This document shows positions 3,772 to 19,583 of a stretch of 64,000 nucleotides of DNA, piece after piece. Below the pieces are notes generated by a model. It saw only the letters and a list, made by a program, of their open reading frames with translations, was not told where the DNA came from and did no database searches. Numbering within the stretch: the first letter of the stretch is position 1; each line of letters begins with the position of its first letter. The DNA is taken from contig CAVRAL010000001.1 of the NCBI GenBank assembly GCA_963719085.1, forward strand, positions 160,001 to 224,000, read 5' to 3'. This DNA comes from a candidate division FCPU426 bacterium. Its GTDB lineage: Bacteria; Oederibacteriota; Muellerivitia; Muellerivitales; Muellerivitaceae. The translations under genes were made by a program, and so were the position numbers.

Positions 3772-4122
3772 ATGGCATTGACAAAAGAGCAGGTTTTAAA
3801 GGAATTGAAAGCCGATCATGTGGTGATTTTGAATGTTTTGCCTGAAGCGGAGTATCGAAAGCTCCACATCAAAGGCTCCCGAAACCTCCCGTTGGGAGAG
3901 GACTCCGGCGCCTTTCTCGACGCCGTCGAGGAACAATTCGGACGGGGTAAGTTGTTCATCACTTATTGCGCCGGACCGAGTTGTTCCGCCGGTCCCCACG
4001 CGGCAAAGCTTCTGAATGAAAATGGATTCAAGGCCGAGGATTATCCCGGTGGTATCGAGGAATGGCATGACAATGGATTGCCGGTGGAAGGAAGCATGGA
4101 AGAAGTTCCATTGAAGGCTTAA
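3772..4122 (+). CDS. rhodanese-like domain protein
   Basis: HIKGSRNLP, YCAGPSC and YPGGIEEW motifs; AAGGAG RBS. Confidence 0.88.
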   Translation: MALTKEQVLKELKADHVVILNVLPEAEYRKLHIKGSRNLPLGEDSGAFLDAVEEQFGRGKLFITYCAGPSCSAGPHAAKLLNENGFKAEDYPGGIEEWHDNGLPVEGSMEEVPLKA

Positions 4123-4151
4123 TTTTCAGGGTTTTAATAAAGTTTTAAAGT

Positions 4152-4192
4152 AAAGGCCTGTTTTCCTAGGGGAAGGCGGGCCTTTTTATTTT
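4152..4192 (+). terminator. intrinsic terminator after the rhodanese gene
   Basis: AAAGGCCTG...CGGGCCTTT stem followed by a T-rich run. Confidence 0.65.
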
Positions 4193-4248
4193 GATTAAAA
4201 TTGGTTATAAAAGTCCCTCGGCCGCATACCCAAAGACCAAGGAATGCC

Positions 4249-4932
4249 ATGAGCCAAACCATCCAGCAGATGTTTTCCCGCATTGCCCCGACCTATGACC
4301 AGGCCAATCACGCCCTGTCCTTCAATAAAGACATTCAGTGGCGTAAAGATGCGGTAAGCCAAGCGGCCCAAGACGGCTTCAAGCCCCGTCTGGTTCTGGA
4401 TCTTTGCGCGGGTACGGGGGATTTCGCGCTGGCGGTAAAGGAACAATGGCCCGAGGCCAAGGTCGCGCTGGCCGATTTCGCCAAGCCCATGTTGGTCTTG
4501 GCCAAACAAAAAGCGGGAACCAGCTTTGATTACTTGGAGGCGGACGCCTTGAAACTGCCTTTCCAAGATTTTTCTTTCGATTTGGTGGTTTGCGGTTTCG
4601 GGGTCCGGAACCTGGACTCGGTGGAAGCGGGGCTCAAAGAAATCGCCCGGGTCTTGAAGCCCGGCGGCAAGGCCGTGATCCTTGAGTTTTTTAAACCCAC
4701 GGGCTTTTTGGCCAAACTGGCCTATACCTTTTATGTGGGGACGATTCTTCCGATGCGGGGCGGCGCCATTTCCAAGGATAAAGCCGCTTACGAGTATCTG
4801 CAAAAGTCCTCCAAGCAATTTTTGTCCTTGAACGATTTCAAAGCGATCTTGGAAAAAAACGGGTTTAAGGATGTCATGGTTAAGAGCCAAACGATGGGTG
4901 TGGCGGCTAGTTTGGTGGCGGTAAGGAAGTAA
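4249..4932 (+). CDS. ubiE: UbiE/MenG demethylmenaquinone methyltransferase
   Basis: MFSRIAPTYDQAN, LDLCAGTGD, FGVRN, RVLKPGG and AYEYL motifs; start placed at ATG 4249. Confidence 0.92.
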   Translation: MSQTIQQMFSRIAPTYDQANHALSFNKDIQWRKDAVSQAAQDGFKPRLVLDLCAGTGDFALAVKEQWPEAKVALADFAKPMLVLAKQKAGTSFDYLEADALKLPFQDFSFDLVVCGFGVRNLDSVEAGLKEIARVLKPGGKAVILEFFKPTGFLAKLAYTFYVGTILPMRGGAISKDKAAYEYLQKSSKQFLSLNDFKAILEKNGFKDVMVKSQTMGVAASLVAVRK

Positions 4933-5043
4933 GTGACGGCAACTTTATTAACCGTCATTGCGACGCGGCAATCTCAGTTTGTGGGTTGTTTTTGGAGGTG
5001 ACGTCTTAATTCCACAAATTCAAAATGGGAAGATAAAGGAAAT

Positions 5044-5619
5044 ATGAAAAAAATATTTATCGCTGTCACCGGGGCTTCCGGCACACTCTATGCCCGGCGC
5101 TTCTTCCAGCACCTTCCCTATGACGATTGGGAAGTGCATGCTTGCGTGTCATCATCCGCCCGAATCGTGGCTTCGCATGAAGGGGGATTGAACCTGCCGC
5201 CGCACGTCAAAGAGTGGGATGAGAAAGACCTGACGGCTCCCGTGGCCAGCGGCTCCAACAAATTCGAGGCCATGGTGGCGGTGCCTTGTTCCACGGCGAC
5301 TTTAGGCAAGCTGGCCCATGGGATCGCCGATAACCTGATCACCCGGGCGGGCGAGGTTTTTTTAAAGGAACGCCGGAGGCTCATCCTGGTCCAACGGGAA
5401 ACGCCCCTGTCGCTGATCCAGATCAAAAACATGGAACTCTTGACCTTGGCGGGCGCCCATCTGATTCCGGCCAACCCGAGCTTTTACGGACAACCCAAAA
5501 CGATCGAGGATTTGGCCGATACGGTGATTGCCCGGGTTTACGACCACGCCGGGATCCAGGCTGAGGTCGCCAAACGCTGGCGGGCCGAGGAAGCCCGTAA
5601 GCTTCCGAACGAAAAATAA
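5044..5619 (+). CDS. ubiX: flavin prenyltransferase UbiX
   Basis: TGASG, ASGS, PCS, RETPL and PSFY motifs. Confidence 0.95.
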   Translation: MKKIFIAVTGASGTLYARRFFQHLPYDDWEVHACVSSSARIVASHEGGLNLPPHVKEWDEKDLTAPVASGSNKFEAMVAVPCSTATLGKLAHGIADNLITRAGEVFLKERRRLILVQRETPLSLIQIKNMELLTLAGAHLIPANPSFYGQPKTIEDLADTVIARVYDHAGIQAEVAKRWRAEEARKLPNEK

Positions 5620-5674
5620 GTTAAAAAACAAAGCCGCCGGGGGTGCCTTGGGGGCGGGCTTTTGAATATAATCT

Positions 5675-5825
5675 CCCCGCTTCGCCCAAAGGCGAAAAGC
5701 GCTGCGCCGGGCAGGTCCGGCTTCGTTTAAAGCCAAAAACCGATGTGTTAGATATAGCTCGTAGAGTCCAGGGAATATAACGCTGTACGTGACGGGCATG
5801 CCCGGCGTAGCGCAGCGAAGACGGG
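5675..5825. repeat. inverted pair of REP-like palindromes
   Basis: CCCCGCTTCGC...GCGCTGCGCCGGGCA and TGCCCGGCGTAGCGCAGCGAAGACGGG are complementary arms in the ubiX-ubiA gap. Confidence 0.55.
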
Positions 5826-5836
5826 AAAGGGAAGAA

Positions 5837-6706
5837 ATGCTCAAGCAACTCAAAGACTGGTCCAACCTGATTGTTTTGTCCCATTCGGTTTTCGCCCTGC
5901 CTTTCGCTTTGGCGAGCCTTTTGGTGGCGACCCGTCATCAACCTTCCGGGCATCTGACCTTGCTGGTTATTTTGGCCATGTTTTTCGCCCGCACCGCCGC
6001 GATGGCCTACAACCGGGTCGTGGACGCGGATATGGACGCCTTAAATCCCCGGACCCAGAACCGGGAAATCCCCTCAGGCAAAATTTCAAAGATACACGTT
6101 TTGATATTGACCTGGCTGTCCGCCGCCGGCTTTTTGGCCGCCTGTTATTTCATTGGGGGATTGGCGTTTAAATTGTCACCGCTGGCTCTTTTCATCATCT
6201 TTTTTTATTCCCAAACCAAGCGCTATACCTGGCTTTGTCACCTGGTCTTAGGGCTGGCTTTGGGGCTGGCGCCCATGGGGGCTTGGATCGCCGCCCGGGG
6301 AACGATTGACGCCGCGCCCTTTTTTCTTTTACTGGGTGTGCTTTGTTTCGTGGCGGGCTTTGACATTCTTTACGCCATCAAGGACGTGGCCTTTGACAAA
6401 ACCCATGGGCTTCATTCCTGGCCGGAGCGTTGGGGCATTCGCTCCAGTTTGAGGGCGTCTCGAATTCTGCATTTCGCCATGTTGGGATTTCTGGCCGGTT
6501 TCGGGGTTCTGGCGCAGTTAAGCCCCATTTATATTTACGGGCTTACCTTGATCGGCGTTTTCCTGATTTATCAGCATTCGAGAATTTTCACCTATGAACG
6601 GGACCGTAAAAGCGGGGAGTTCGTCCTGCCCATCGACGTTTTGAGCTTGAACGGATGGGTTTCGGTTATTTTCCTCGTCATCGTGGGAGCGAGCCTATGG
6701 TTTTAA
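5837..6706 (+). CDS. ubiA: UbiA-family prenyltransferase (MqnP-like)
   Basis: HSVFALPFA, NRVVDADMDALNPRT and GFDILYA motifs; start placed at ATG 5837. Confidence 0.92.
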   Translation: MLKQLKDWSNLIVLSHSVFALPFALASLLVATRHQPSGHLTLLVILAMFFARTAAMAYNRVVDADMDALNPRTQNREIPSGKISKIHVLILTWLSAAGFLAACYFIGGLAFKLSPLALFIIFFYSQTKRYTWLCHLVLGLALGLAPMGAWIAARGTIDAAPFFLLLGVLCFVAGFDILYAIKDVAFDKTHGLHSWPERWGIRSSLRASRILHFAMLGFLAGFGVLAQLSPIYIYGLTLIGVFLIYQHSRIFTYERDRKSGEFVLPIDVLSLNGWVSVIFLVIVGASLWF

Positions 6707-7954: not shown

Positions 7955-8809
7955 ATGTCTGAAACAACCCTAACACCGCCCCCCGCTGATTCCACCGTGC
8001 CGGCCGCGGCCCCGGTTGTCGTTGAAGCCCCTCCCGCTAGAAAAAATGTCCGGTCCCGAAAAATCGGAGTGGTGCCATTCTTAAACGCCCAGCCCCTGAT
8101 TTGGGGTTTGGCCCAGATCCATCAATTATCCCAAGTGGCGCCCAACGCCATGGGGAAGGCTTTAAAAGAAGGGTCGCTCGACATCGCTTTGGCTCCCATC
8201 GCGGCCAGCTTTCTCAATCCTGAACTGGTGATCGTTCCCGCGGGAGCCATCGGCTCCAAGGGCGCGGTTAAAAGCGTGAGGCTATTAGTCAATGGCGCAC
8301 CCCAATCCATCCGCCGCTTGTTCGTGGATGACCGCTCTCAAACGTCCGTGCTGCTGTCCCGTTTAATCCTGAAGCGCTGGTTTGGCGTGAAGGATTTGGA
8401 GGTGAAGCCCGTGGACATGAAAAGCTTTCACCCCGGCCAGACCAAGCCCTGGGAAGCGACCCTGGAATTCGGGGACAAGGCCCTGACCGCGGCTCCCTCG
8501 GGCATGACGGTACTTGATTTAGGGGAAGAATGGTCCCGTTATACGGGCCAGCCTTTTGTCTTCGCTGTTTGGATGGCGCGAAATCAGGAAATCGCGGCGG
8601 AGTTGAAGGAACAGTTGGAAGAAGCGAAAGCCCAGGGGCTCCAGCACCTGGAAGAAATCACCAATCAATATCAAGGGATCTGGCAGTTCAAACGCGTGGA
8701 CGCCAAGGCCTACTTGGAAAAAAGCATCGATTATAACTATGGCCCGGCCGAGCAACAGGGCCACGCTGAATTTCAGCGGCTATTAAAAGAAGAGGGGCTC
8801 CTATCATGA
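7955..8809 (+). CDS. mqnA: chorismate dehydratase (MqnA-like)
   Basis: FLNAQPL, GAVKSV, SQTSVLL, GDKAL and DLGEEW..TGQPFVFAVW motifs. Confidence 0.9.
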   Translation: MSETTLTPPPADSTVPAAAPVVVEAPPARKNVRSRKIGVVPFLNAQPLIWGLAQIHQLSQVAPNAMGKALKEGSLDIALAPIAASFLNPELVIVPAGAIGSKGAVKSVRLLVNGAPQSIRRLFVDDRSQTSVLLSRLILKRWFGVKDLEVKPVDMKSFHPGQTKPWEATLEFGDKALTAAPSGMTVLDLGEEWSRYTGQPFVFAVWMARNQEIAAELKEQLEEAKAQGLQHLEEITNQYQGIWQFKRVDAKAYLEKSIDYNYGPAEQQGHAEFQRLLKEEGLLS

Positions 8810-13554: not shown

Positions 13555-14802
13555 ATGCAACCACGTTTGGTTTTATTCGCCAAAACCCTTTTAACTTTGG
13601 ACCGCTCGAAACCCATCGAGGATGGTTTTGTGCTGGTTCAAGGCAGCCGGATCCTGCAAGTGGGACGCCGGAAGGATTTTTATTCCCAGCCGCCGGTTCG
13701 CGCCCTGGATCTGGGCGACACGATTCTTTTGCCCGGCCTCATCAACGCCCATTGCCACTTGGACTTTACCGCCTTCAAGGGAAAGGTTCCTTTTAAGGGA
13801 AGCTTCCGCGAGTGGCTGAGGGAGATGGCGGGCAAGAGCCGGCTGGCCACAACGGCCGATTTTCACAAGTCGGTCAAATCCGGGATCCAGGAAAGCCTGG
13901 CCCATGGCACGACAACGCTTTGCGACATTTCCACCAGTGGGGAAAGTTTTAAATTGCTTCCCAAGTCGGGCCTGCGGGCCTTCGCTTTTTTGGAGCTTTT
14001 GGATGTGGCCCAGCCCAAGCCGGACGCGGTTTGGAAAAGCTTCCAAGAACGGATGAAGCGTTTGACTTCCGGGCTCCCGGATTCGGAAACATTCCGCTGG
14101 GGCATCGGCCCCCACACGCCTTTCACCGTTTCCAAGGAACTTCTTCTTTTGGCGGGCCGATACGTGGGCTCGCGGGCCCATTGTTTGACCACCCTGCATG
14201 TGGCGGAAAGCCGGGAAGAGTCCGTTTTTTTTAAGCGGGGAAAAGGCCCGATGGCGGATCGCATCAAGGTTTTAAACCCCGATTGGAACCTTCCCCACGG
14301 CACCACGCCGGTTCAATACTTAAACGAGTGCGGCTGGCTTCCTAAATTGGACCTGGCGGTCCATCTCAACGAAGTAGTGGAAAAGGACTTAAGGCTTCTG
14401 GCCAAGAACCGGGTAAGCGTTGTTCACTGCCCGGGGAGCCACGACTTTTTTAACCATTCCCGGTTTAAATTTGAAAAAATGCGCCGCTTGGGGATTCGAG
14501 TCTGCCTGGGGACGGATAGCTTGGCCAGCAACCGGTCTTTGTCCCTGTTCCGTGAAATGAGGCTTTTTCAAGGCGCGCACCCCAAGGTGGGTGCCGAGGA
14601 GATCCTTTCCATGGTGACGGTTAAACCGGCGCAGGCCTTAGGGGAGGGCCGTACCTTAGGGAGGATAAAACCGGGCTATTTCGCCGATCTCATCGGCATT
14701 CCGGCCCCGCGGCGGGGTCAAAAAGACCCCTATCAAGCCGTGATTCAAAACCAACGCCCCGTCACTTTTTCCATGATTCATGGCCGCTTAAGGCTCCGCT
14801 AA
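13555..14802 (+). CDS. amidohydrolase, MtaD/aminodeoxyfutalosine deaminase-like
   Basis: PGLINAHCHLD, PHTPF, HVAES, HCPGS and LGTDSLASN motifs. Confidence 0.85.
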   Translation: MQPRLVLFAKTLLTLDRSKPIEDGFVLVQGSRILQVGRRKDFYSQPPVRALDLGDTILLPGLINAHCHLDFTAFKGKVPFKGSFREWLREMAGKSRLATTADFHKSVKSGIQESLAHGTTTLCDISTSGESFKLLPKSGLRAFAFLELLDVAQPKPDAVWKSFQERMKRLTSGLPDSETFRWGIGPHTPFTVSKELLLLAGRYVGSRAHCLTTLHVAESREESVFFKRGKGPMADRIKVLNPDWNLPHGTTPVQYLNECGWLPKLDLAVHLNEVVEKDLRLLAKNRVSVVHCPGSHDFFNHSRFKFEKMRRLGIRVCLGTDSLASNRSLSLFREMRLFQGAHPKVGAEEILSMVTVKPAQALGEGRTLGRIKPGYFADLIGIPAPRRGQKDPYQAVIQNQRPVTFSMIHGRLRLR

Positions 14803-14836
14803 AGGGCCCCTCTATTCCCTTATTTGGCCTATTTCT

Positions 14837-14861
14837 GGGATTTACCCAGTTAACTCCCTAA
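14837..14861. repeat. terminal inverted repeat (cargo side)
   Basis: GGGATTTACCCAGTTAACTCCCTAA; 23/25 identical to the reverse complement of 18617-18641. Confidence 0.93.
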
Positions 14862-15005
14862 ATCCATAAACCCCTTTAAATTAGGCCCTAAAAACTCACA
14901 GAAAGCTCCCTTTAAATAGCCTTAAATTTTTGGTCTAAAAGTCTTAAATAATCATTAAGTATGATGGAATGGAAGATAAAGAGTTACGTTTGTATACCCC
15001 ATTGC

Positions 15006-15033
15006 TTGACATCAAAATACCTGTAATTATAAT
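15006..15033 (+). promoter_or_regulatory. sigma70-type promoter for the cargo gene pair
   Basis: TTGACA-N16-TATAAT. Confidence 0.75.
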
Positions 15034-15126
15034 GCCTGTTCTTTGACTCAGGCCAATTTTGGCATTTAGAAGTAACCTTTAATTTTTAATCTATAAAACA
15101 ATCTGTTTAAGATTCTGGAGCTAAAC

Positions 15127-15324
15127 ATGAACGAAAAAGAACAGTTAGATCAAATCCAAAGTGAACTCAAAGCTCGTGGAGTTAAGGATGTGAAGTTTTT
15201 TGTTTCTACCACCGGAGAAGCTTCTACGAATAAAGTTGCCGCTGCTGCCGCAACTTTTCTTAGAGCAATCTTGGACGGAAAACGAACTCTCAAGAAAGAA
15301 TTTGGGAGCAATAAATCCAAATAA
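15127..15324 (+). CDS. small hypothetical protein (65 aa)
   Basis: GGAG RBS, downstream of a consensus promoter, upstream of the IrrE-like gene. Confidence 0.7.
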   Translation: MNEKEQLDQIQSELKARGVKDVKFFVSTTGEASTNKVAAAAATFLRAILDGKRTLKKEFGSNKSK

Positions 15325-15410
15325 GTTAGAACCCGTATCCTTGATATTGATGGGCTCTTAAATGTAAGAGCCCATTTTTTTTGTTTAAAATACCGTATTT
15401 GGGGCGTCCT

Positions 15411-16046
15411 ATGAGACAGATTACCTATCGACATTTAAAAATTTGTTTAGAAAAAGCAAAGGAGATGTTCGATAAATATCAAACCTGGGGAGATGGCGAT
15501 CCTGGGTTCGAGAGAAATGTCGATGTTTTGGGTAGTGTTTGCGCCCGGGATTTAGAGGAAAGCATTCGTGTCTATGACGTTGAAGCTGTGCCGGAAGAGT
15601 TAAAAGAACTATGCGGTGGCTTGTGCTTAGTGATCGAAGATGGAAGTTATGAAATTAATTTACATCCGGCGCTCAATCCCTGCTGGCAACGATTCATTTT
15701 ATGTAAGGAACTCTTCCAAGTTGTTTTGGACGGCCAAGAGTATAGAAGCGTAAATTTGTATGCTCACCTAGAACAGCTGATTCAAATAATGCCGGGGGAC
15801 GGGGATGACGATAGTATTTATCTTCCGGGCGTTTCTGAGTTGATGGCTGAAATAGCTGCAATGGAATTTTTATTTCCATATTCTGAACGGTTAAAAATCA
15901 AATCTCAAAAAAGTATAAATTTGTTAGACGTTGCAACCAAATATCGGATTCCTCAAAAGTTTGTTGCCATTTATCTTTCGGACGCTTATATGGGTTTTCT
16001 AAATCCCGATTCAGATGATTTGAAAGTTGCTGAAAGCTCGGTATAG
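15411..16046 (+). CDS. ImmA/IrrE-like metallopeptidase-fold protein with degenerate HExxH
   Basis: LNPCWQRFILCKELFQ and E..AEIAAMEFLFP, then an HTH-like VATKYRIP; matches the IrrE/DUF955 layout by eye. Confidence 0.6.
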   Translation: MRQITYRHLKICLEKAKEMFDKYQTWGDGDPGFERNVDVLGSVCARDLEESIRVYDVEAVPEELKELCGGLCLVIEDGSYEINLHPALNPCWQRFILCKELFQVVLDGQEYRSVNLYAHLEQLIQIMPGDGDDDSIYLPGVSELMAEIAAMEFLFPYSERLKIKSQKSINLLDVATKYRIPQKFVAIYLSDAYMGFLNPDSDDLKVAESSV

Positions 16047-16090
16047 ATTATCTGTAGACTTGTTGTCTTAGGGCTAAAGCCCCCCCGAAG

Positions 16091-16297
16091 TCATTTAAAA
16101 AACTCCCCAAAATCGACTTTCAAATAATCGGCTATTTTCTCCAAAACCGGGATAGTTGGTATCCTTTTGCCGTTAAGGTAATTGTGGATAGTGGCTTTTG
16201 ATATTCCCGCCCCGAAAGCTACCTTCTCAGAGCTTTGGCCGCTGTTCACAATCATTCTTCTTAGGTTTTTAACTGCTTTTTTCGCATAGTTTGACAT
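16091..16297 (-). CDS. XRE-family helix-turn-helix regulator
   Basis: SSEKVAFGAGISKATIHNYLNGKRIPTIPVLEKIADYLKV. Confidence 0.9.
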   Translation of the reverse strand: MSNYAKKAVKNLRRMIVNSGQSSEKVAFGAGISKATIHNYLNGKRIPTIPVLEKIADYLKVDFGEFFK

Positions 16298-16331
16298 GCC
16301 AAAAACTATAGATTTTTGTCTTGCCTTATAC

Positions 16332-16366
16332 GTTCACCCTTGTAAACTTTGTTTACGTTCGTAAAC
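16332..16366. promoter_or_regulatory. two tandem palindromic operators GTT(C/T)AC-N4-GTAAAC
   Basis: 16332-16347 and 16351-16366, between the divergent XRE and lipoprotein starts. Confidence 0.6.
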
Positions 16367-16384
16367 CACTTGAATAGGCTAAAC

Positions 16385-16936
16385 ATGGGCAAATATATAG
16401 TAGTCCTAATACTATCCCTTATTGGCTCACTACCTTTAGCTTGTAGCATAGACCATCCGGTACCATCTGCACCTCAAACCGTAGCTACGAGTACATACAC
16501 ACCAACAACCACTCCAACCACGACTACGACACCCACACCTACCTCTATCTACACGATGATTCCGGTTACAATCGTTGCCAATTCTCAATATCCAACTACA
16601 AGTGAACCCAGCTACAGCGCCATACTTTTATGGGGGTCTTGCCCCGGCGGAACAGGCTTATGTCTTAGTGGGTCTGTATCTTTGGGGCTGTCTTCGAATT
16701 ACCAAGCAACTACGGTCGTTTCGATACCACAAGGACAATTTACCTACATTCAAGTTAATGAAGCCTATTCACTCCCGGTAAATTATACTTTTGGAAACAC
16801 ATTGGAACTGATTGTAACCCAACCTAACGTTTCTCCTGTTACGAGTTACGGAAGTCCCGTTACTTCCGGTTCTGATGTTGCCGATGATGCTGACATTGAT
16901 ACGAATGTGGGCAGTTCCGCCTCATCAGTTAAATAA
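16385..16936 (+). CDS. putative lipoprotein with Thr/Pro-rich linker
   Basis: MGKYIVVLILSLIGSLPLAC signal/lipobox followed by a TPTTTPTTTTTPTPT linker. Confidence 0.7.
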   Translation: MGKYIVVLILSLIGSLPLACSIDHPVPSAPQTVATSTYTPTTTPTTTTTPTPTSIYTMIPVTIVANSQYPTTSEPSYSAILLWGSCPGGTGLCLSGSVSLGLSSNYQATTVVSIPQGQFTYIQVNEAYSLPVNYTFGNTLELIVTQPNVSPVTSYGSPVTSGSDVADDADIDTNVGSSASSVK

Positions 16937-16949
16937 AAGGAGTTTGAAA

Positions 16950-17204
16950 ATGGCAACCTTCTTTATTTGTTATGACCTCGCGCAAAAAGATGAAGATTAT
17001 TACGAAGACCTATTCAAAGATTTGAAAAGTCTAGGTGCCAAACGAGTTCAAGAATCGGTTTGGGCTCTTAAATCTGACCAAAGAACCTCGGAAATTTTCG
17101 ATGCTCTAAAAGGCAATTTCCCGGATGATAACGATAGGCTTTTAGTTGGAAACATAGACGGATGGAGTAGTCGCCATTCGATGTATAACATCAAAGACAT
17201 TTGA
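16950..17204 (+). CDS. stand-alone Cas2/VapD-like protein (84 aa)
   Basis: AAGGAG RBS; FFICYDL ... LKSLGAKRVQESVW ... DRLLV matches the Cas2/VapD pattern. Confidence 0.7.
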   Translation: MATFFICYDLAQKDEDYYEDLFKDLKSLGAKRVQESVWALKSDQRTSEIFDALKGNFPDDNDRLLVGNIDGWSSRHSMYNIKDI

Positions 17205-17369
17205 TTACTCATCCTCGGAGCTTTGATATTGAGGGATACCTGGAGGGGTAATAAGACTACTTTCGAATTTGACCGTTTCGAGAGATTTGCGCATTACCTC
17301 CAGGGCTTTCCATTCTTCCTTTGACTCAGGTTCAAATTTTAAACCGCCGTTGTACCAGTACACTCTCAT
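17205..17369 (-). CDS. small hypothetical protein (54 aa, MRVYWYNGGLKFEPESKEEWKAL...)
   Basis: Translated by hand; ATGA-coupled to the upstream micro-ORF; below the ORF-track cutoff. Confidence 0.5.
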   Translation of the reverse strand: MRVYWYNGGLKFEPESKEEWKALEVMRKSLETVKFESSLITPPGIPQYQSSEDE

Positions 17370-17476
17370 TTTTTTGTATCCTTCTTTTTCTTTTTGGGTT
17401 CCTTGTTTCCGAATTTCAAAATCGCATCCAAAACCTTGTTTAACTTTTCTAATTCCTCTTTAACTTTTTTGGTCAT
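17366..17476 (-). CDS. small basic protein (36 aa, MTKKVKEELEKLNKVLDAILKFGNKEPKKKKKDTKK)
   Basis: Translated by hand; ATGA overlap with the transposase stop. Confidence 0.45.
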   Translation of the reverse strand: MTKKVKEELEKLNKVLDAILKFGNKEPKKKKKDTKK

Positions 17477-18396
17477 TCTTGCGCCCCGATCAGACGCTTG
17501 TAGGTAAGCCGCTTGCCAATGGAAGAATCAAGAAGACTGGCTAAACGTTCCATGCTAGTCCTGGTAACGTTGCCGTCGCTAAGACGAAATGCAAATTCAT
17601 TTACGTATCGAGAAAGGTGTTTCTTGGAGGCGTGGTGATAGACTCCATTCAAACCACGCTTCATAACTGCCCAAACGCTTTCAATTCCGTTGGTAGTTAC
17701 GTCGCCACGAACATACTCTTCTTTTTCGTGATTGATTTTCTCAATCGTGTATTGGCTCTTGAGATATTTGTATCCTGGGAATTGATCGGTATTCAAAATT
17801 GAACCCGCTTCAATATTTTTGGTAATGGTTTCAAATCGTTCTTTGGCGTTGATTTCATCAACCACTACGCCTTTAGTACGGCCTTTGCGTTCCCGCATTC
17901 CAACAACAATTGTTTTTCCGATAGAACCACCACCATGAATCCTTTTACTTTGATGCTTGTTTGCTTCAAGGCCACCAACATAAGTTTCATCAATCTCAAC
18001 AGTGCCACTTAAAAGTAGGGAAGGATCACCAGCACATGCTTCTCTAATACGACTCAAAAGAAACCAAGCCGTTGTTTGAGTGACTCCGATTTCTTTAGAC
18101 AGTTGCATTGATGAAACGCCTTTCCTTGAAGTCACTAGGAGGTACATTGCAAACAACCATTTATTTAATGGAACGTGAGACCGCTCAAAGAGGGTGCCAG
18201 TTCTCACAGTGAAATCAACCAAACAGGCATTACAGTGGTAGTAGCCACGCTTACGGATGCCAATGCGTTTAGTCTCCGAACAGCACGGGCAAATAGGTCC
18301 ATTTGGCCATCTGCGGGCCTCAATATGCTTCCTCGCTGCCTCTTCGTCTGGAAACATCTCCATAAGCTTGTAAGCGCTAATCGCTGTGTTTTTCAT
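17473..18396 (-). CDS. IS1595-family DDE transposase
   Basis: Zn ribbon CPCC..CNAC, EIDETYVGG, TDQ, TNGIESVW and YVNEFAFR motifs. Confidence 0.96.
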   Translation of the reverse strand: MKNTAISAYKLMEMFPDEEAARKHIEARRWPNGPICPCCSETKRIGIRKRGYYHCNACLVDFTVRTGTLFERSHVPLNKWLFAMYLLVTSRKGVSSMQLSKEIGVTQTTAWFLLSRIREACAGDPSLLLSGTVEIDETYVGGLEANKHQSKRIHGGGSIGKTIVVGMRERKGRTKGVVVDEINAKERFETITKNIEAGSILNTDQFPGYKYLKSQYTIEKINHEKEEYVRGDVTTNGIESVWAVMKRGLNGVYHHASKKHLSRYVNEFAFRLSDGNVTRTSMERLASLLDSSIGKRLTYKRLIGAQE

Positions 18397-18616
18397 ATCT
18401 TCTCCTAGCTAAGTCATTAAAATCATTGTGGCGGTCCGGAGCTTTATTAACGGTTCTGGTGACGTTAATAAGTGCCAATCCGATGACGGACTAAAGACCC
18501 CGAGGAAAGGCCCTCCGCAACCGCCACAATCATTCCCCGACTTCGATAAATGCCTTCCAAATGCCTCTAAAAACCCTAAAAATTTGGCCTTAATCCGGCT
18601 CCAAAACCCGCTCAAA

Positions 18617-18641
18617 TTAGGGAGTTAACTGGGTTATTCCC
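18617..18641. repeat. terminal inverted repeat (transposase side)
   Basis: TTAGGGAGTTAACTGGGTTATTCCC, followed by the CTATTTCT duplication. Confidence 0.93.
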
Positions 18642-18653
18642 CTATTTCTGTTC

Positions 18654-18681
18654 TTGACAGGTCCATTAAAAACCATATAAT
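18654..18681 (+). promoter_or_regulatory. rplM-rpsI promoter
   Basis: TTGACA-N16-TATAAT, ending 43 nt upstream of the rplM ATG. Confidence 0.8.
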
Positions 18682-18724
18682 TCAGGCCCTTGTATCTCTA
18701 TTAGACAGAAACGAAGGTAATGCT

Positions 18725-19174
18725 ATGACGCTTCAAAAGACTTATCTCCCCACCGTCAAGGACATCAACCGTAAATGGTGGCTTGTCGACGCGAAGGATC
18801 AGGTGCTGGGCCGTTTAATTTCCCGTGTGGCCGCCGTGTTGCGTGGAAAGCACAAAACGACCTTTACGCCGCATTTGGAAAACGGTGATCATGTGGTGAT
18901 CATCAACGCCGACAAGATCGTGCTCACGGGACGCAAGTGGGAAACCAAATCCCATCACCGCACCTCGGGCCGTCCGGGCGGATTGTCCACCGAAACCTAC
19001 AAGGTGCTTCGCACCTCGAAGCCTGAGCGCATTTTGGAATACGCCATCAAGGGCATGCTGCCCAAGACCTCCCAGGGGGCGAAGATGTTCACCCGGGTTA
19101 AGATTTACGCGGGCGAAACCCATCCCCACGAAAGCCAAGTTCCGCAAGTTCTCGATTTCGCATCTAAAAAGTAA
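18725..19174 (+). CDS. rplM: 50S ribosomal protein L13
   Basis: WWLVDA, LGRL, LRGKHK, GDHVVIINA and GMLPK motifs. Confidence 0.98.
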   Translation: MTLQKTYLPTVKDINRKWWLVDAKDQVLGRLISRVAAVLRGKHKTTFTPHLENGDHVVIINADKIVLTGRKWETKSHHRTSGRPGGLSTETYKVLRTSKPERILEYAIKGMLPKTSQGAKMFTRVKIYAGETHPHESQVPQVLDFASKK

Positions 19175-19187
19175 GGAGACTTAACCA

Positions 19188-19583
19188 GTGCCAGCCGCTA
19201 AGGAACAATTTATCGCCACGGGCCGCCGGAAAACTTCCGTCGCCCGAGTTACGTTGAAACCCGGAAAGGGCCAATTCGTGGTCAACGGATTGCCGGTGGA
19301 AAAGTTTTTCCCCGACCAGAAACAAGCGGTTCTTCGCTCTCCTTTGGAGACGGTGACGGCTTTGAACAAATATGATGTGTTCGTCAACGTGAACGGCGGC
19401 GGCGTGACGGGTCAAGCCGAAGCCATCCGCCACGGCATCGCGCGGGCCTTGTTGAAAATTGACTCCGAGATGCGCAAGCCCTTGAAGGTGGCCGGGATGC
19501 TCACCCGCGATCCCCGCATGGTGGAACGCAAAAAGTACGGGCGCAAGAAGGCCCGCCGCCGCTTCCAATTCTCGAAGCGTTAA
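19188..19583 (+). CDS. rpsI: 30S ribosomal protein S9
   Basis: [19 protein letters not shown] and ERKKYG...QFSKR motifs. Confidence 0.98.

Follow-up and report, generated by a model that had tools for sequence, protein, structure and literature searches.

Insertion sequences (ISs) that carry passenger genes, or transporter ISs, are a described kind of mobile element, for which the portion of the ISsaga paper available to us (PMC3129680) cites Siguier, Gagnevin and Chandler (2009). Pairs of an XRE repressor and a COG2856 (M78) peptidase are likewise known, namely ImmR/ImmA, DdrO/IrrE and CapH/CapP (excerpts of Makarova 2009, PMC2701414, and of Lau 2022, 10.1101/2022.04.27.489752), and exclusion lipoproteins such as Ltp (Streptococcus thermophilus TP-J34) have their genes in lysogeny modules, from which the prophage expresses them (PMC3952083, in the part available). 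We analyzed a 64-kb stretch of DNA from a candidate division FCPU426 bacterium (the window, that is, all 64,000 nucleotides of it) and, within it, an element of the IS1595 family that measures 3,805 bp end to end (14837-18641). Our reading, to which we assign a probability of about 0.6, is that it is an intact, single-copy transporter IS with a mosaic cargo of independently mobile units of lysogeny and plasmid type, and not one system. Its backbone would consist of a DDE transposase and a translationally coupled, Lys-rich open reading frame (ORF) of 36 aa, and its 2.6-kb cargo would be a mosaic of units typical of temperate-phage lysogeny regions and plasmids.

The element is delimited by terminal inverted repeats (TIRs) of 25 nt, 92% complementary (23 of 25 positions): the left one, GGGATTTACCCAGTTAACTCCCTAA, lies at 14837..14861 on the plus strand and has a core like sibling ends such as GGGACTTATATAGTTAACTC; the right one, located by repeat search, lies at 18617..18641 on the minus strand. 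Directly outside them an exact 8-bp target duplication, CTATTTCT, was read at 14829..14836 and again at 18642..18649. A degenerate TIR pattern, derived from these same two ends, matched at these two places only in the window, compared to 0 matches in 100 shuffles. GC content is 0.34-0.48 in the interior and 0.50-0.58 in the flanks. Eight ORFs lie between the ends, all of them open, and the six that do not belong to the backbone fall within 14862-17369, as passenger genes inside the ends. The transposase gene (17473..18396, minus strand) encodes 307 aa with no stop, and the protein scores 137.7 bits against Pfam DDE_Tnp_IS1595 (PF12762), 47.7 bits against Zn_ribbon_IS1595 (PF12760) and 185.8 bits against NCBIfam transpos_IS1595 (NF033547; cut-off 75). 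The original prediction, made from the letters of this DNA, had proposed the TIRs, the duplication, an intact IS1595 transposase and an AT-rich interior, and repeat search, direct reading and the Pfam and NCBIfam matches bear it out in all of these. It had also counted seven cargo ORFs in three units: the ORFs are there, but they form four transcription units, and one of them, m36, is part of the backbone.

The insertion had been proposed to be recent, and this agrees with what we found. The element is present as one copy in a 3.04-Mb, 99%-complete genome, and its site is empty in G001, a genome of the same genus in which the flanks are contiguous (the amidohydrolase match runs to 8197 and the rplM-side match starts at 8189): a few bases separate the amidohydrolase gene from the rplM promoter region there, against ~3.8 kb in the window. 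We did not find the element in the 98 other genomes of the phylum. The exact 18-nt core of the TIR had 0 matches in the collection of genome contigs and, with up to two mismatches allowed, was found in its own genome only among the 99 genomes of the phylum; hence there is no close sibling for comparison. Contigs of two soil-metagenome runs bridge both junctions without differences, in the filled form only, yet these contigs are not independent support because the runs may include the source sample. The joint of an empty site was not seen in the covered parts of the contigs of three soil runs from one study.

Counted from the duplication, the insertion lies 4 nt upstream of the -35 box of the rplM-rpsI promoter (TTGACA-16-TATAAT), at what would have been an AT-rich 8-bp target; the right end of the element is 12 nt from the -35 hexamer. 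This promoter-like site (18654..18681, plus strand; 12/12 match to the consensus) belongs to the host and not to the element, and G001 keeps the homologous TTGACA...TATAAT without an insertion. Whatever lay upstream of the rplM promoter has been replaced by the insertion.

To place the IS among its relatives, 8,000 candidates from a collection of 5.8 billion sequences were scored with the transposase: 5,544 of them were relatives at E 1e-60, the best identity was 67%, and plasmid-borne transposases were at most 45% identical. An IS1595 transposase was found at E 1e-30 in 14 of the 99 genomes of the phylum. At seven places in the phylum the transposases are 55-64% identical to that of the window over nearly their full length, and their surroundings are complete elements, with ends like GGGA[ACT]T[TA]A....TT.A.T and AT-rich duplications of 8 bp. 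Six siblings have an exact duplication, and that of G012 agrees at 7/8 positions. Eight duplications, those of the window and of a further element described below among them, are simply AT-rich by reading, and a preference for DnaA-box-like targets was rejected (CTATTTCT, TTTTCAAA, TTTTTTTG, AAAAATCA, TAATTTTA, AAAATTTT, TTTGCAGA and ATAGTTT(C/T)). The cargo differs from sibling to sibling. That of G012 (2,024 bp) encodes a membrane protein; G069 has two copies (1,966 and 1,965 bp) with a 253-aa protein, the transposase being broken in one of them; and in G008 (1,556 bp) the transposase gene is preceded by an ORF of 129 aa that belongs to no known family. In the sibling of G072 (L063, G072:C4 5963-9138; 3,176 bp) the transposase is frameshifted, another transposase of DDE_Tnp_1 (IS5) type is nested, and a protein of 188 aa is related to the cargo protein of G069. 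Two siblings carry methyltransferases: G023 (L061, G023:C1 4258-7036; 2,779 bp, duplication TAATTTTA) has a D12 adenine methyltransferase and a 263-aa protein of no family, and G019 (L062, G019:C30 2067-7445; 5,379 bp, duplication AAAATTTT) has two D12 adenine methyltransferases, a DUF7226 protein, glycine-zipper and membrane proteins, and a Cas2-like gene that adjoins the right end. Because these siblings have TIRs and duplications of their own and different cargo, they form with the window's element a clade of transporter ISs, with a fixed backbone and swappable cargo that is partly of restriction-modification type. The search for siblings with other cargo that had been suggested was thus fruitful. 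As to whether the element is already catalogued, its kind is, as a transporter IS, but this particular IS has no close relative and, among the 99 genomes of the phylum, was found in its own only.

The constant part of these elements extends beyond the transposase gene. Its stop codon overlaps by 4 nt (17473-17476) the start of m36 (17366..17476, minus strand), a Lys-rich ORF of 36 aa, and an m36-like ORF follows the transposase stop in seven of nine elements read by eye, with a motif of approximately ..L..I..YG...PKKKKK; tblastn was significant for G012 only. Judged from these sequences, m36 is a conserved component of the IS backbone and not cargo. In G023, the motif that other siblings encode as a micro-ORF of its own, rich in Lys, lies in the first residues of the methyltransferase. 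The stop of m36 overlaps in turn, again by 4 nt (17366-17369), the start of m54 (17205..17369, minus strand; 54 aa). This second micro-ORF was not found in the other sibling elements. A stretch next to the Cas2-like gene of G009 matches it at 51% identity, but that copy has an in-frame stop and no start. In the window, m54 is convergent with the Cas2-like gene and abuts it: the two stop codons meet at 17202-17207 with no spacer, so the transcripts must overlap or share a bidirectional end. Both micro-ORFs had been listed as cargo; they are present, and both are translationally coupled to the transposase through the 4-nt overlaps, but m36 has to be moved to the backbone. On the other side of the transposase gene, in the untranslated DNA between its start and the right end, there is a 15-nt inverted repeat (18421-18435 / 18520-18534; 93% complementary, 84 nt apart), which may be a regulatory hairpin for transposase expression. 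A search of Rfam over 14000-19500 gave nothing at E up to 0.1.

We distinguished two units in the cargo. Unit A, at the left, consists of orf65 (15127..15324, plus strand), which encodes 65 aa of no known family, with no Pfam or NCBIfam match above noise and no helix-turn-helix (HTH) match, and of a gene for a 211-aa M78-like protein (15411..16046, plus strand). A promoter-like TTGACA-16-TATAAT lies upstream of orf65 (15006..15033, plus strand), called on its 12/12 match to the consensus alone, and a terminator-like hairpin with a 12-bp stem and a T-run lies between the two genes (15349..15386, plus strand), scoring as a terminator at 15349-15376. The M78-like family counts 18 proteins at E <=0.001, 3 of which have a precomputed PF06114 match, and 17 metagenome loci. 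In 11 of 13 loci an orf65 homologue comes just before the M78-like gene, and in L031 and L033 it was missed; these 13 are the loci with at least 300 nt of upstream sequence, three others having too little and L025 being left out. The partner of this M78-like protein is accordingly orf65, and not the cognate XRE protein of M78 peptidases. At the same place between the two genes, a strong hairpin was found in 9/9 spacers folded (that of the window and those of eight loci, with three others left out); the stems are GC-rich, 9-12 bp long and of differing sequence, with z-scores from -2.0 to -4.6, and a U-run follows in seven of the nine by reading. The neighbours of the pair in other loci include an integrase, a terminase, an IS1 transposase and a C5 methylase with a helicase, and the 17 M78-like loci hold no relative of the window's XRE regulator, exported protein, Cas2-like gene or transposase. 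In our reading, unit A is a self-contained module of two genes that belongs to mobile elements.

The larger protein of unit A had been called IrrE-like, a name that is supported by its fold. Its Pfam M78 score is 17.5 bits, below the cut-off of 22. Its AlphaFold (AF2) model, with a mean confidence (pLDDT) of 82, was matched by Foldseek to IrrE (3dti, E 1.4e-4), 8slm, PprI, CapP (7t5t, TMq 0.59) and a Mycobacterium tuberculosis regulator (6cz6 and related chains), which we take to be an XRE-COG2856 fusion. All of these matches have a probability of 1.00, and two only are at E <=0.001. In an alignment of 17 members of the family (32-71% identity), K99, E100, E143 and E147 are invariant, which at such identities speaks for selection on the family. 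All 17 have a motif KExx[HQ], as opposed to the HExxH of M78 peptidases, its position being judged from motif order and the helices of the model; H103 is present in 15 of the 17, and the protein of the window (KELFQ) and one other have Q. The M78-like protein probably no longer cuts.

A predicted complex of orf65 with the M78-like protein reached a score of 0.80, compared to 0.02 for the best control. The mark for this score is reached by 116 of 157 solved complexes and by 2 of 215 mismatched pairs, counts that are rough here since custom alignments were used. Between runs, at least 94% of the contacts agree, with a partner pLDDT of at least 82 (orf65 alone is modelled with low confidence, at a pLDDT of 68), and the predicted interface includes residues 96, 99, 100, 103, 143 and 146 of the M78-like protein, that is, the former active-site cleft. 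In the mechanism that we propose, unit A would be transcribed from the consensus promoter through orf65, the terminator hairpin and the M78-like gene, and the hairpin should yield an excess of orf65 over the M78-like protein. According to the prediction, the small protein would fold onto the large one and cover its substrate cleft, which would lack the zinc-binding histidines: K99 would replace the first one throughout the family, and Q103 the second one in the copy of the window. We infer an antitoxin/toxin-like or inhibitor/sensor pair, and not an active repressor-cleaving peptidase.

Unit B is built around an XRE-type HTH regulator of 68 aa (16091..16297, minus strand), of the size of Cro or of a controller protein. 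It scores 44.7 bits against HTH_3, its HTH spans residues 10-67, and PADLOC matches it weakly to Control_protein (E 0.0012) and capH (E 0.013). Across two operator-like palindromes, GTTCAC-N4-GTAAAC and GTTTAC-N4-GTAAAC (16332..16366), it faces the gene of an exported protein, possibly a lipoprotein (16385..16936, plus strand; 183 aa), followed by the Cas2-like gene. The pattern GTTYAC-N4-GTRAAC, derived from the sequences of the window and of G013, has only these two matches in the window. The exported protein has a hydrophobic N-terminal segment (residues 4-22), a Thr/Pro-rich linker and a C-terminal domain of no family; there was no family match in four libraries, and its best score in Atlas, 0.82, is below the useful level. 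It had been predicted to be a lipoprotein: the signal-like N-terminus is there, but the lipobox ..SLPLAC, with Pro at -3, is non-canonical by reading.

Related cassettes were found in two genomes, neither of them with orf65 or an M78-like gene. In G013 (L013, G013:C3 3227-8869) the XRE protein is 85% identical and the homologous intergenic region has the same two operator sites. It faces a lipoprotein with a canonical lipobox (..FIGC) that shares only the Thr/Pro-rich linker with the exported protein of the window; an Mrr-type nuclease comes next, and the cassette lies in an integrative element with a primase-like protein of 705 aa and a tyrosine recombinase. In G009 there are a frameshifted XRE gene, an unrelated secreted protein and a Cas2-like gene whose product is 62% identical to that of the window. 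Going by these sequences, the 68-aa regulator would bind the two palindromic operators and so control the divergent operon, made of an exported envelope protein and a solo protein of Cas2 fold that is likely a small nuclease. For unit B we infer a role in exclusion or addiction, to the advantage of the element that carries it.

With all these parts inside one element, the cargo might be conceived as one integrated, stress-induced system of the CapH/CapP type, in which the M78-like protein would sense damage or infection and cleave the XRE regulator, de-repressing the exported protein and a Cas2-like effector, with orf65 as an extra regulator. The arrangement lends itself to this view: 44 nt separate the ends of the M78-like and XRE genes, the model of the M78-like protein is similar to CapP and IrrE, the XRE regulator faces a putative effector operon across two operators and has the weak PADLOC match to capH, and such regulators control diverse immune operons (10.1101/2022.04.27.489752, in the part available). 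However, the zinc motif is lost (KELFQ), and an HTH at residues 10-67 leaves no cleavable C-terminal domain in a protein of 68 aa. CapH, DdrO and ImmR are of a size to hold the C-terminal domain in which they are cleaved. Moreover, the M78-like gene occurs at 17 other loci without a relative of this XRE and is tied to orf65, and unit B is found in G013 and G009 without unit A. For these reasons we rejected a CapH/CapP-like single system, which we consider quite improbable.

The last gene of unit B encodes a solo Cas2-like protein of 84 aa (16950..17204, plus strand). It scores 29.3 bits against Pfam Cas2 (PF09827; cut-off 23.8), 25.9 against NCBIfam TIGR01573 (cut-off 24.5), and matches phrog_1090 at 1.5e-13. 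Its family, of solo proteins of 80-90 aa, has 2,180 representatives at E <=0.001 and 169 at <=1e-10, and 28 of 41 sampled members match PF09827. Y8, D9, L10, S36, W38 and D62 are near-invariant in the family and are kept in the window's protein, including the Asp of the N-terminal YDL strand; HMMER aligns it with Cas2 chains, although the profile matches to solved chains are weak (best E 0.0031). VapD-type small nucleases are related to Cas2, and nuclease activity of Cas2 has been reported. No cas1 was found in the 99%-complete genome, with a control search positive in 7 named genomes, and 14000-19500 holds no tandem repeats and hence no CRISPR-like repeat array. The terms Cas2 and VapD are absent from the excerpt of Makarova 2009 (PMC2701414).

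The family is present in few genomes: it was found in 4 of the 99 genomes of this phylum, and in 5/201 and 3/401 genomes in samples of another. A search for related loci with a three-row Cas2-like alignment gave three loci in genome contigs and none in viral contigs. Its contexts are varied. In G064 (L073, G064:C12 4800-11600), it lies in an AT-rich island, where its start is overlapped by the gene of a two-segment membrane protein of 119 aa; the island also encodes a protein of 802 aa without a Pfam family and has two paired genes that look PIN/AbrB-like by eye. A Klebsiella ColE1-type plasmid of 4.15 kb (NZ_CP089444.1; L082, 13-810) has as its only non-replication cargo an apparent three-gene operon, all annotated as hypothetical, for a 72-aa protein that we read from its sequence as ribbon-helix-helix (RHH)-like, a 100-aa membrane protein and the Cas2-like protein. 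On a Bacillus thuringiensis plasmid, the Cas2-like gene is followed by that of a two-segment membrane protein. It stands alone at five Acidobacteriota loci and also on Vibrio plasmids, there beside a RelE/Phd pair and a Tn3 transposase; one Vibrio record (CP068636.1) annotates it as CRISPR Cas2, and most of the other 16 leave it unannotated.

Three times the Cas2-like gene lies within the ends of an IS1595 element: in the window, in G019 (transposase 55% identical) and in G124 (35%). The last one (L084, G124:C1 ~3922-5957), from another phylum, is a 2.05-kb element with ends GGTAATAATATACTTGACTGAAT and duplication TTTGCAGA, in which the Cas2-like gene is the main passenger. Twelve chromosomal loci of the gene were examined, mostly with 1.5-kb flanks, and these are 3 of them. 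Because the three proteins are 31-36% identical and their positions differ, they look like separate captures. One could suppose that the gene serves the transposon, as a DNA-binding transposition helper, or counters CRISPR adaptation of the host, as a Cas1 decoy, and its presence in three different IS1595 elements would be explained in this way. Nevertheless, within the flanks examined an IS1595 transposase is absent from the other nine chromosomal loci and from the plasmids and phages, most IS siblings have no Cas2-like gene, the three elements place and orient it differently with respect to the transposase gene, and this genome has no cas1 to serve as a target. We regard such a role as very unlikely.

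Phages provide the last context. The gp05 protein of Enterococcus phage phiFL1A belongs to the Cas2-like family (hhalign 99.5%, E 2.7e-22). The lysogeny module of this phage runs integrase, ImmA/IrrE peptidase, XRE repressor, gp04 and gp05, facing a cro-like repressor, and Bacillus phage phi4B1 has a similar layout. With a member of the Cas2-like family beside ImmA and XRE in phiFL1A, the cargo resembles, in its set of genes, the immunity region of a temperate phage, here borne by an IS. The original prediction had found the gene set unfamiliar; it is less so than was supposed, as the lysogeny modules of temperate phages also contain an ImmA-type peptidase, an XRE repressor, an exported lipoprotein and members of this Cas2-like family.

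Nor is there support for one coherent new system in the cargo, as had been proposed: the orf65/M78-like pair, the XRE gene with its divergent lipoprotein, and the Cas2-like gene each occur elsewhere without the others. Of the predicted mobile stress or anti-phage cassette there remains the stress and defence flavour, to which the siblings with restriction-modification genes add, but not the single system. Several observations weigh against a mosaic of mobile units carried by an intact transporter IS. PADLOC, proposed as a check, finds no known defence system in the window's element and nothing beyond Cas2 and HTH models. The m36 motif was recognized by eye, and the Cas2-like gene stands alone in the Acidobacteriota loci and on the Vibrio plasmids. 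The exported proteins paired with the XRE regulator or with the Cas2-like gene are not homologous to each other, so that the pairing of exported protein and Cas2-like protein may be coincidence. In unit A, the score of the orf65/M78-like complex is model confidence, and the placement of K99 at the first histidine comes from motif position and model helices, without a residue-level structural alignment. When the family profile was compared with solved chains, it matched no IrrE or ImmA chain (best E 0.59, to unrelated proteins); the link to IrrE and CapP therefore rests on fold and on weak Pfam matches. Finally, the window's M78-like copy has lost the His kept by 15 of 17 relatives and may be decaying, and the m54 and XRE copies of G009 are broken, which indicates that such cassettes decay.

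These signs of decay are also what one would expect if the cargo were inert, a decaying scrap of the immunity region of a prophage or island that was picked up by the IS and has no present function. The M78-like copy is without both zinc-binding histidines, the related cassette in G009 has its XRE and m54 broken, the exported protein has no relatives by Atlas, and there is one copy of the element in one genome of the phylum. On the other hand, all seven ORFs are open, with a 12/12 consensus promoter, a conserved terminator and, by reading, Shine-Dalgarno-like sequences before the orf65, Cas2-like and transposase genes. In addition, the invariance of K99, E100, E143 and E147 in 17 members speaks for selection, and the Cas2-like protein keeps the near-invariant residues of its family. 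Inert hitch-hikers are thus rather unlikely in our view, and we retain the reading of a transporter IS with independently mobile units.

These units could, tentatively, amount to self-defence of an undescribed sort, a possibility about which we remain doubtful. It would comprise a pseudo-peptidase switch (1) and a controller-regulated pair of an exported or membrane protein and a solo nuclease of Cas2 fold (2). In the first, an IrrE/CapP fold would have given up zinc catalysis (KExxH) and would have its cleft held shut by a small partner, supplied in excess by means of the conserved terminator, with a role as a toxin-antitoxin or as an infection sensor. In the second, the pair would recur on a 4-kb plasmid and, in two phyla, on IS1595 transporter ISs, while temperate phages have the Cas2-like gene by itself at their genetic switch; the pair would act as an exclusion or abortive-infection system. 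In the literature searched on IS1595 passenger genes and on solo Cas2-like toxins, we found no paper on this cargo.

At present, this locus offers a well-documented, ordinary insertion and two testable leads, units A and B. More generally, cargo-carrying IS1595 elements would be a cheap vehicle that spreads small modules of immunity, addiction and restriction-modification between distant bacteria. Should the orf65/M78-like pair prove to be a working switch, the ImmA/IrrE/CapP scaffold would be open to re-use without catalysis; and should the solo Cas2-like family have its own function, 'CRISPR-associated endonuclease Cas2' would be the wrong label for many genes so annotated automatically on plasmids and prophages.

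Set beside known systems, the element shares with the IS1595 transporter ISs, as far as the available parts of the sources describe them, a DDE transposase with an N-terminal zinc ribbon, short TIRs, an 8-bp duplication and passenger genes. It differs from them in a transposase at most 67% identical to the protein collection and at most 45% to plasmid-borne ones, and, apparently, in the conserved Lys-rich micro-ORF that follows the transposase gene in its clade. Unit A has in common with ImmR/ImmA, DdrO/IrrE and CapH/CapP the IrrE/CapP fold of its larger protein, and with XRE/M78 pairs in general that it is a two-gene module on mobile elements, often beside an integrase; in contrast to them, its motif is KExxH (KELFQ here) and not HExxH, its partner is a protein of 65-75 aa with no HTH match, and a terminator hairpin separates its genes.

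Controller (C) proteins of restriction-modification systems are XRE proteins of ~70 aa with paired palindromic operators in a divergent promoter and a nuclease-containing operon opposite. Unit B is like them in these traits, but it has no methyltransferase or restriction enzyme, and its PADLOC match is weak. With the lysogeny modules of phiFL1A and TP-J34, temperate phages of Gram-positive bacteria, the cargo shares an M78-type protein, an XRE protein, an exported lipoprotein-like protein, likened to Ltp by gene type, and a member of the Cas2-like family; unlike those modules, it has an IS as its carrier, no integrase and no phage genes. Lastly, the Cas2-like protein is like CRISPR Cas2 in that it passes the Pfam and NCBIfam cut-offs and keeps the YDL Asp, yet it comes from a genome without cas1, has no array nearby, and is one of a large family of solo proteins, 80-90 aa long, that mobile elements carry.

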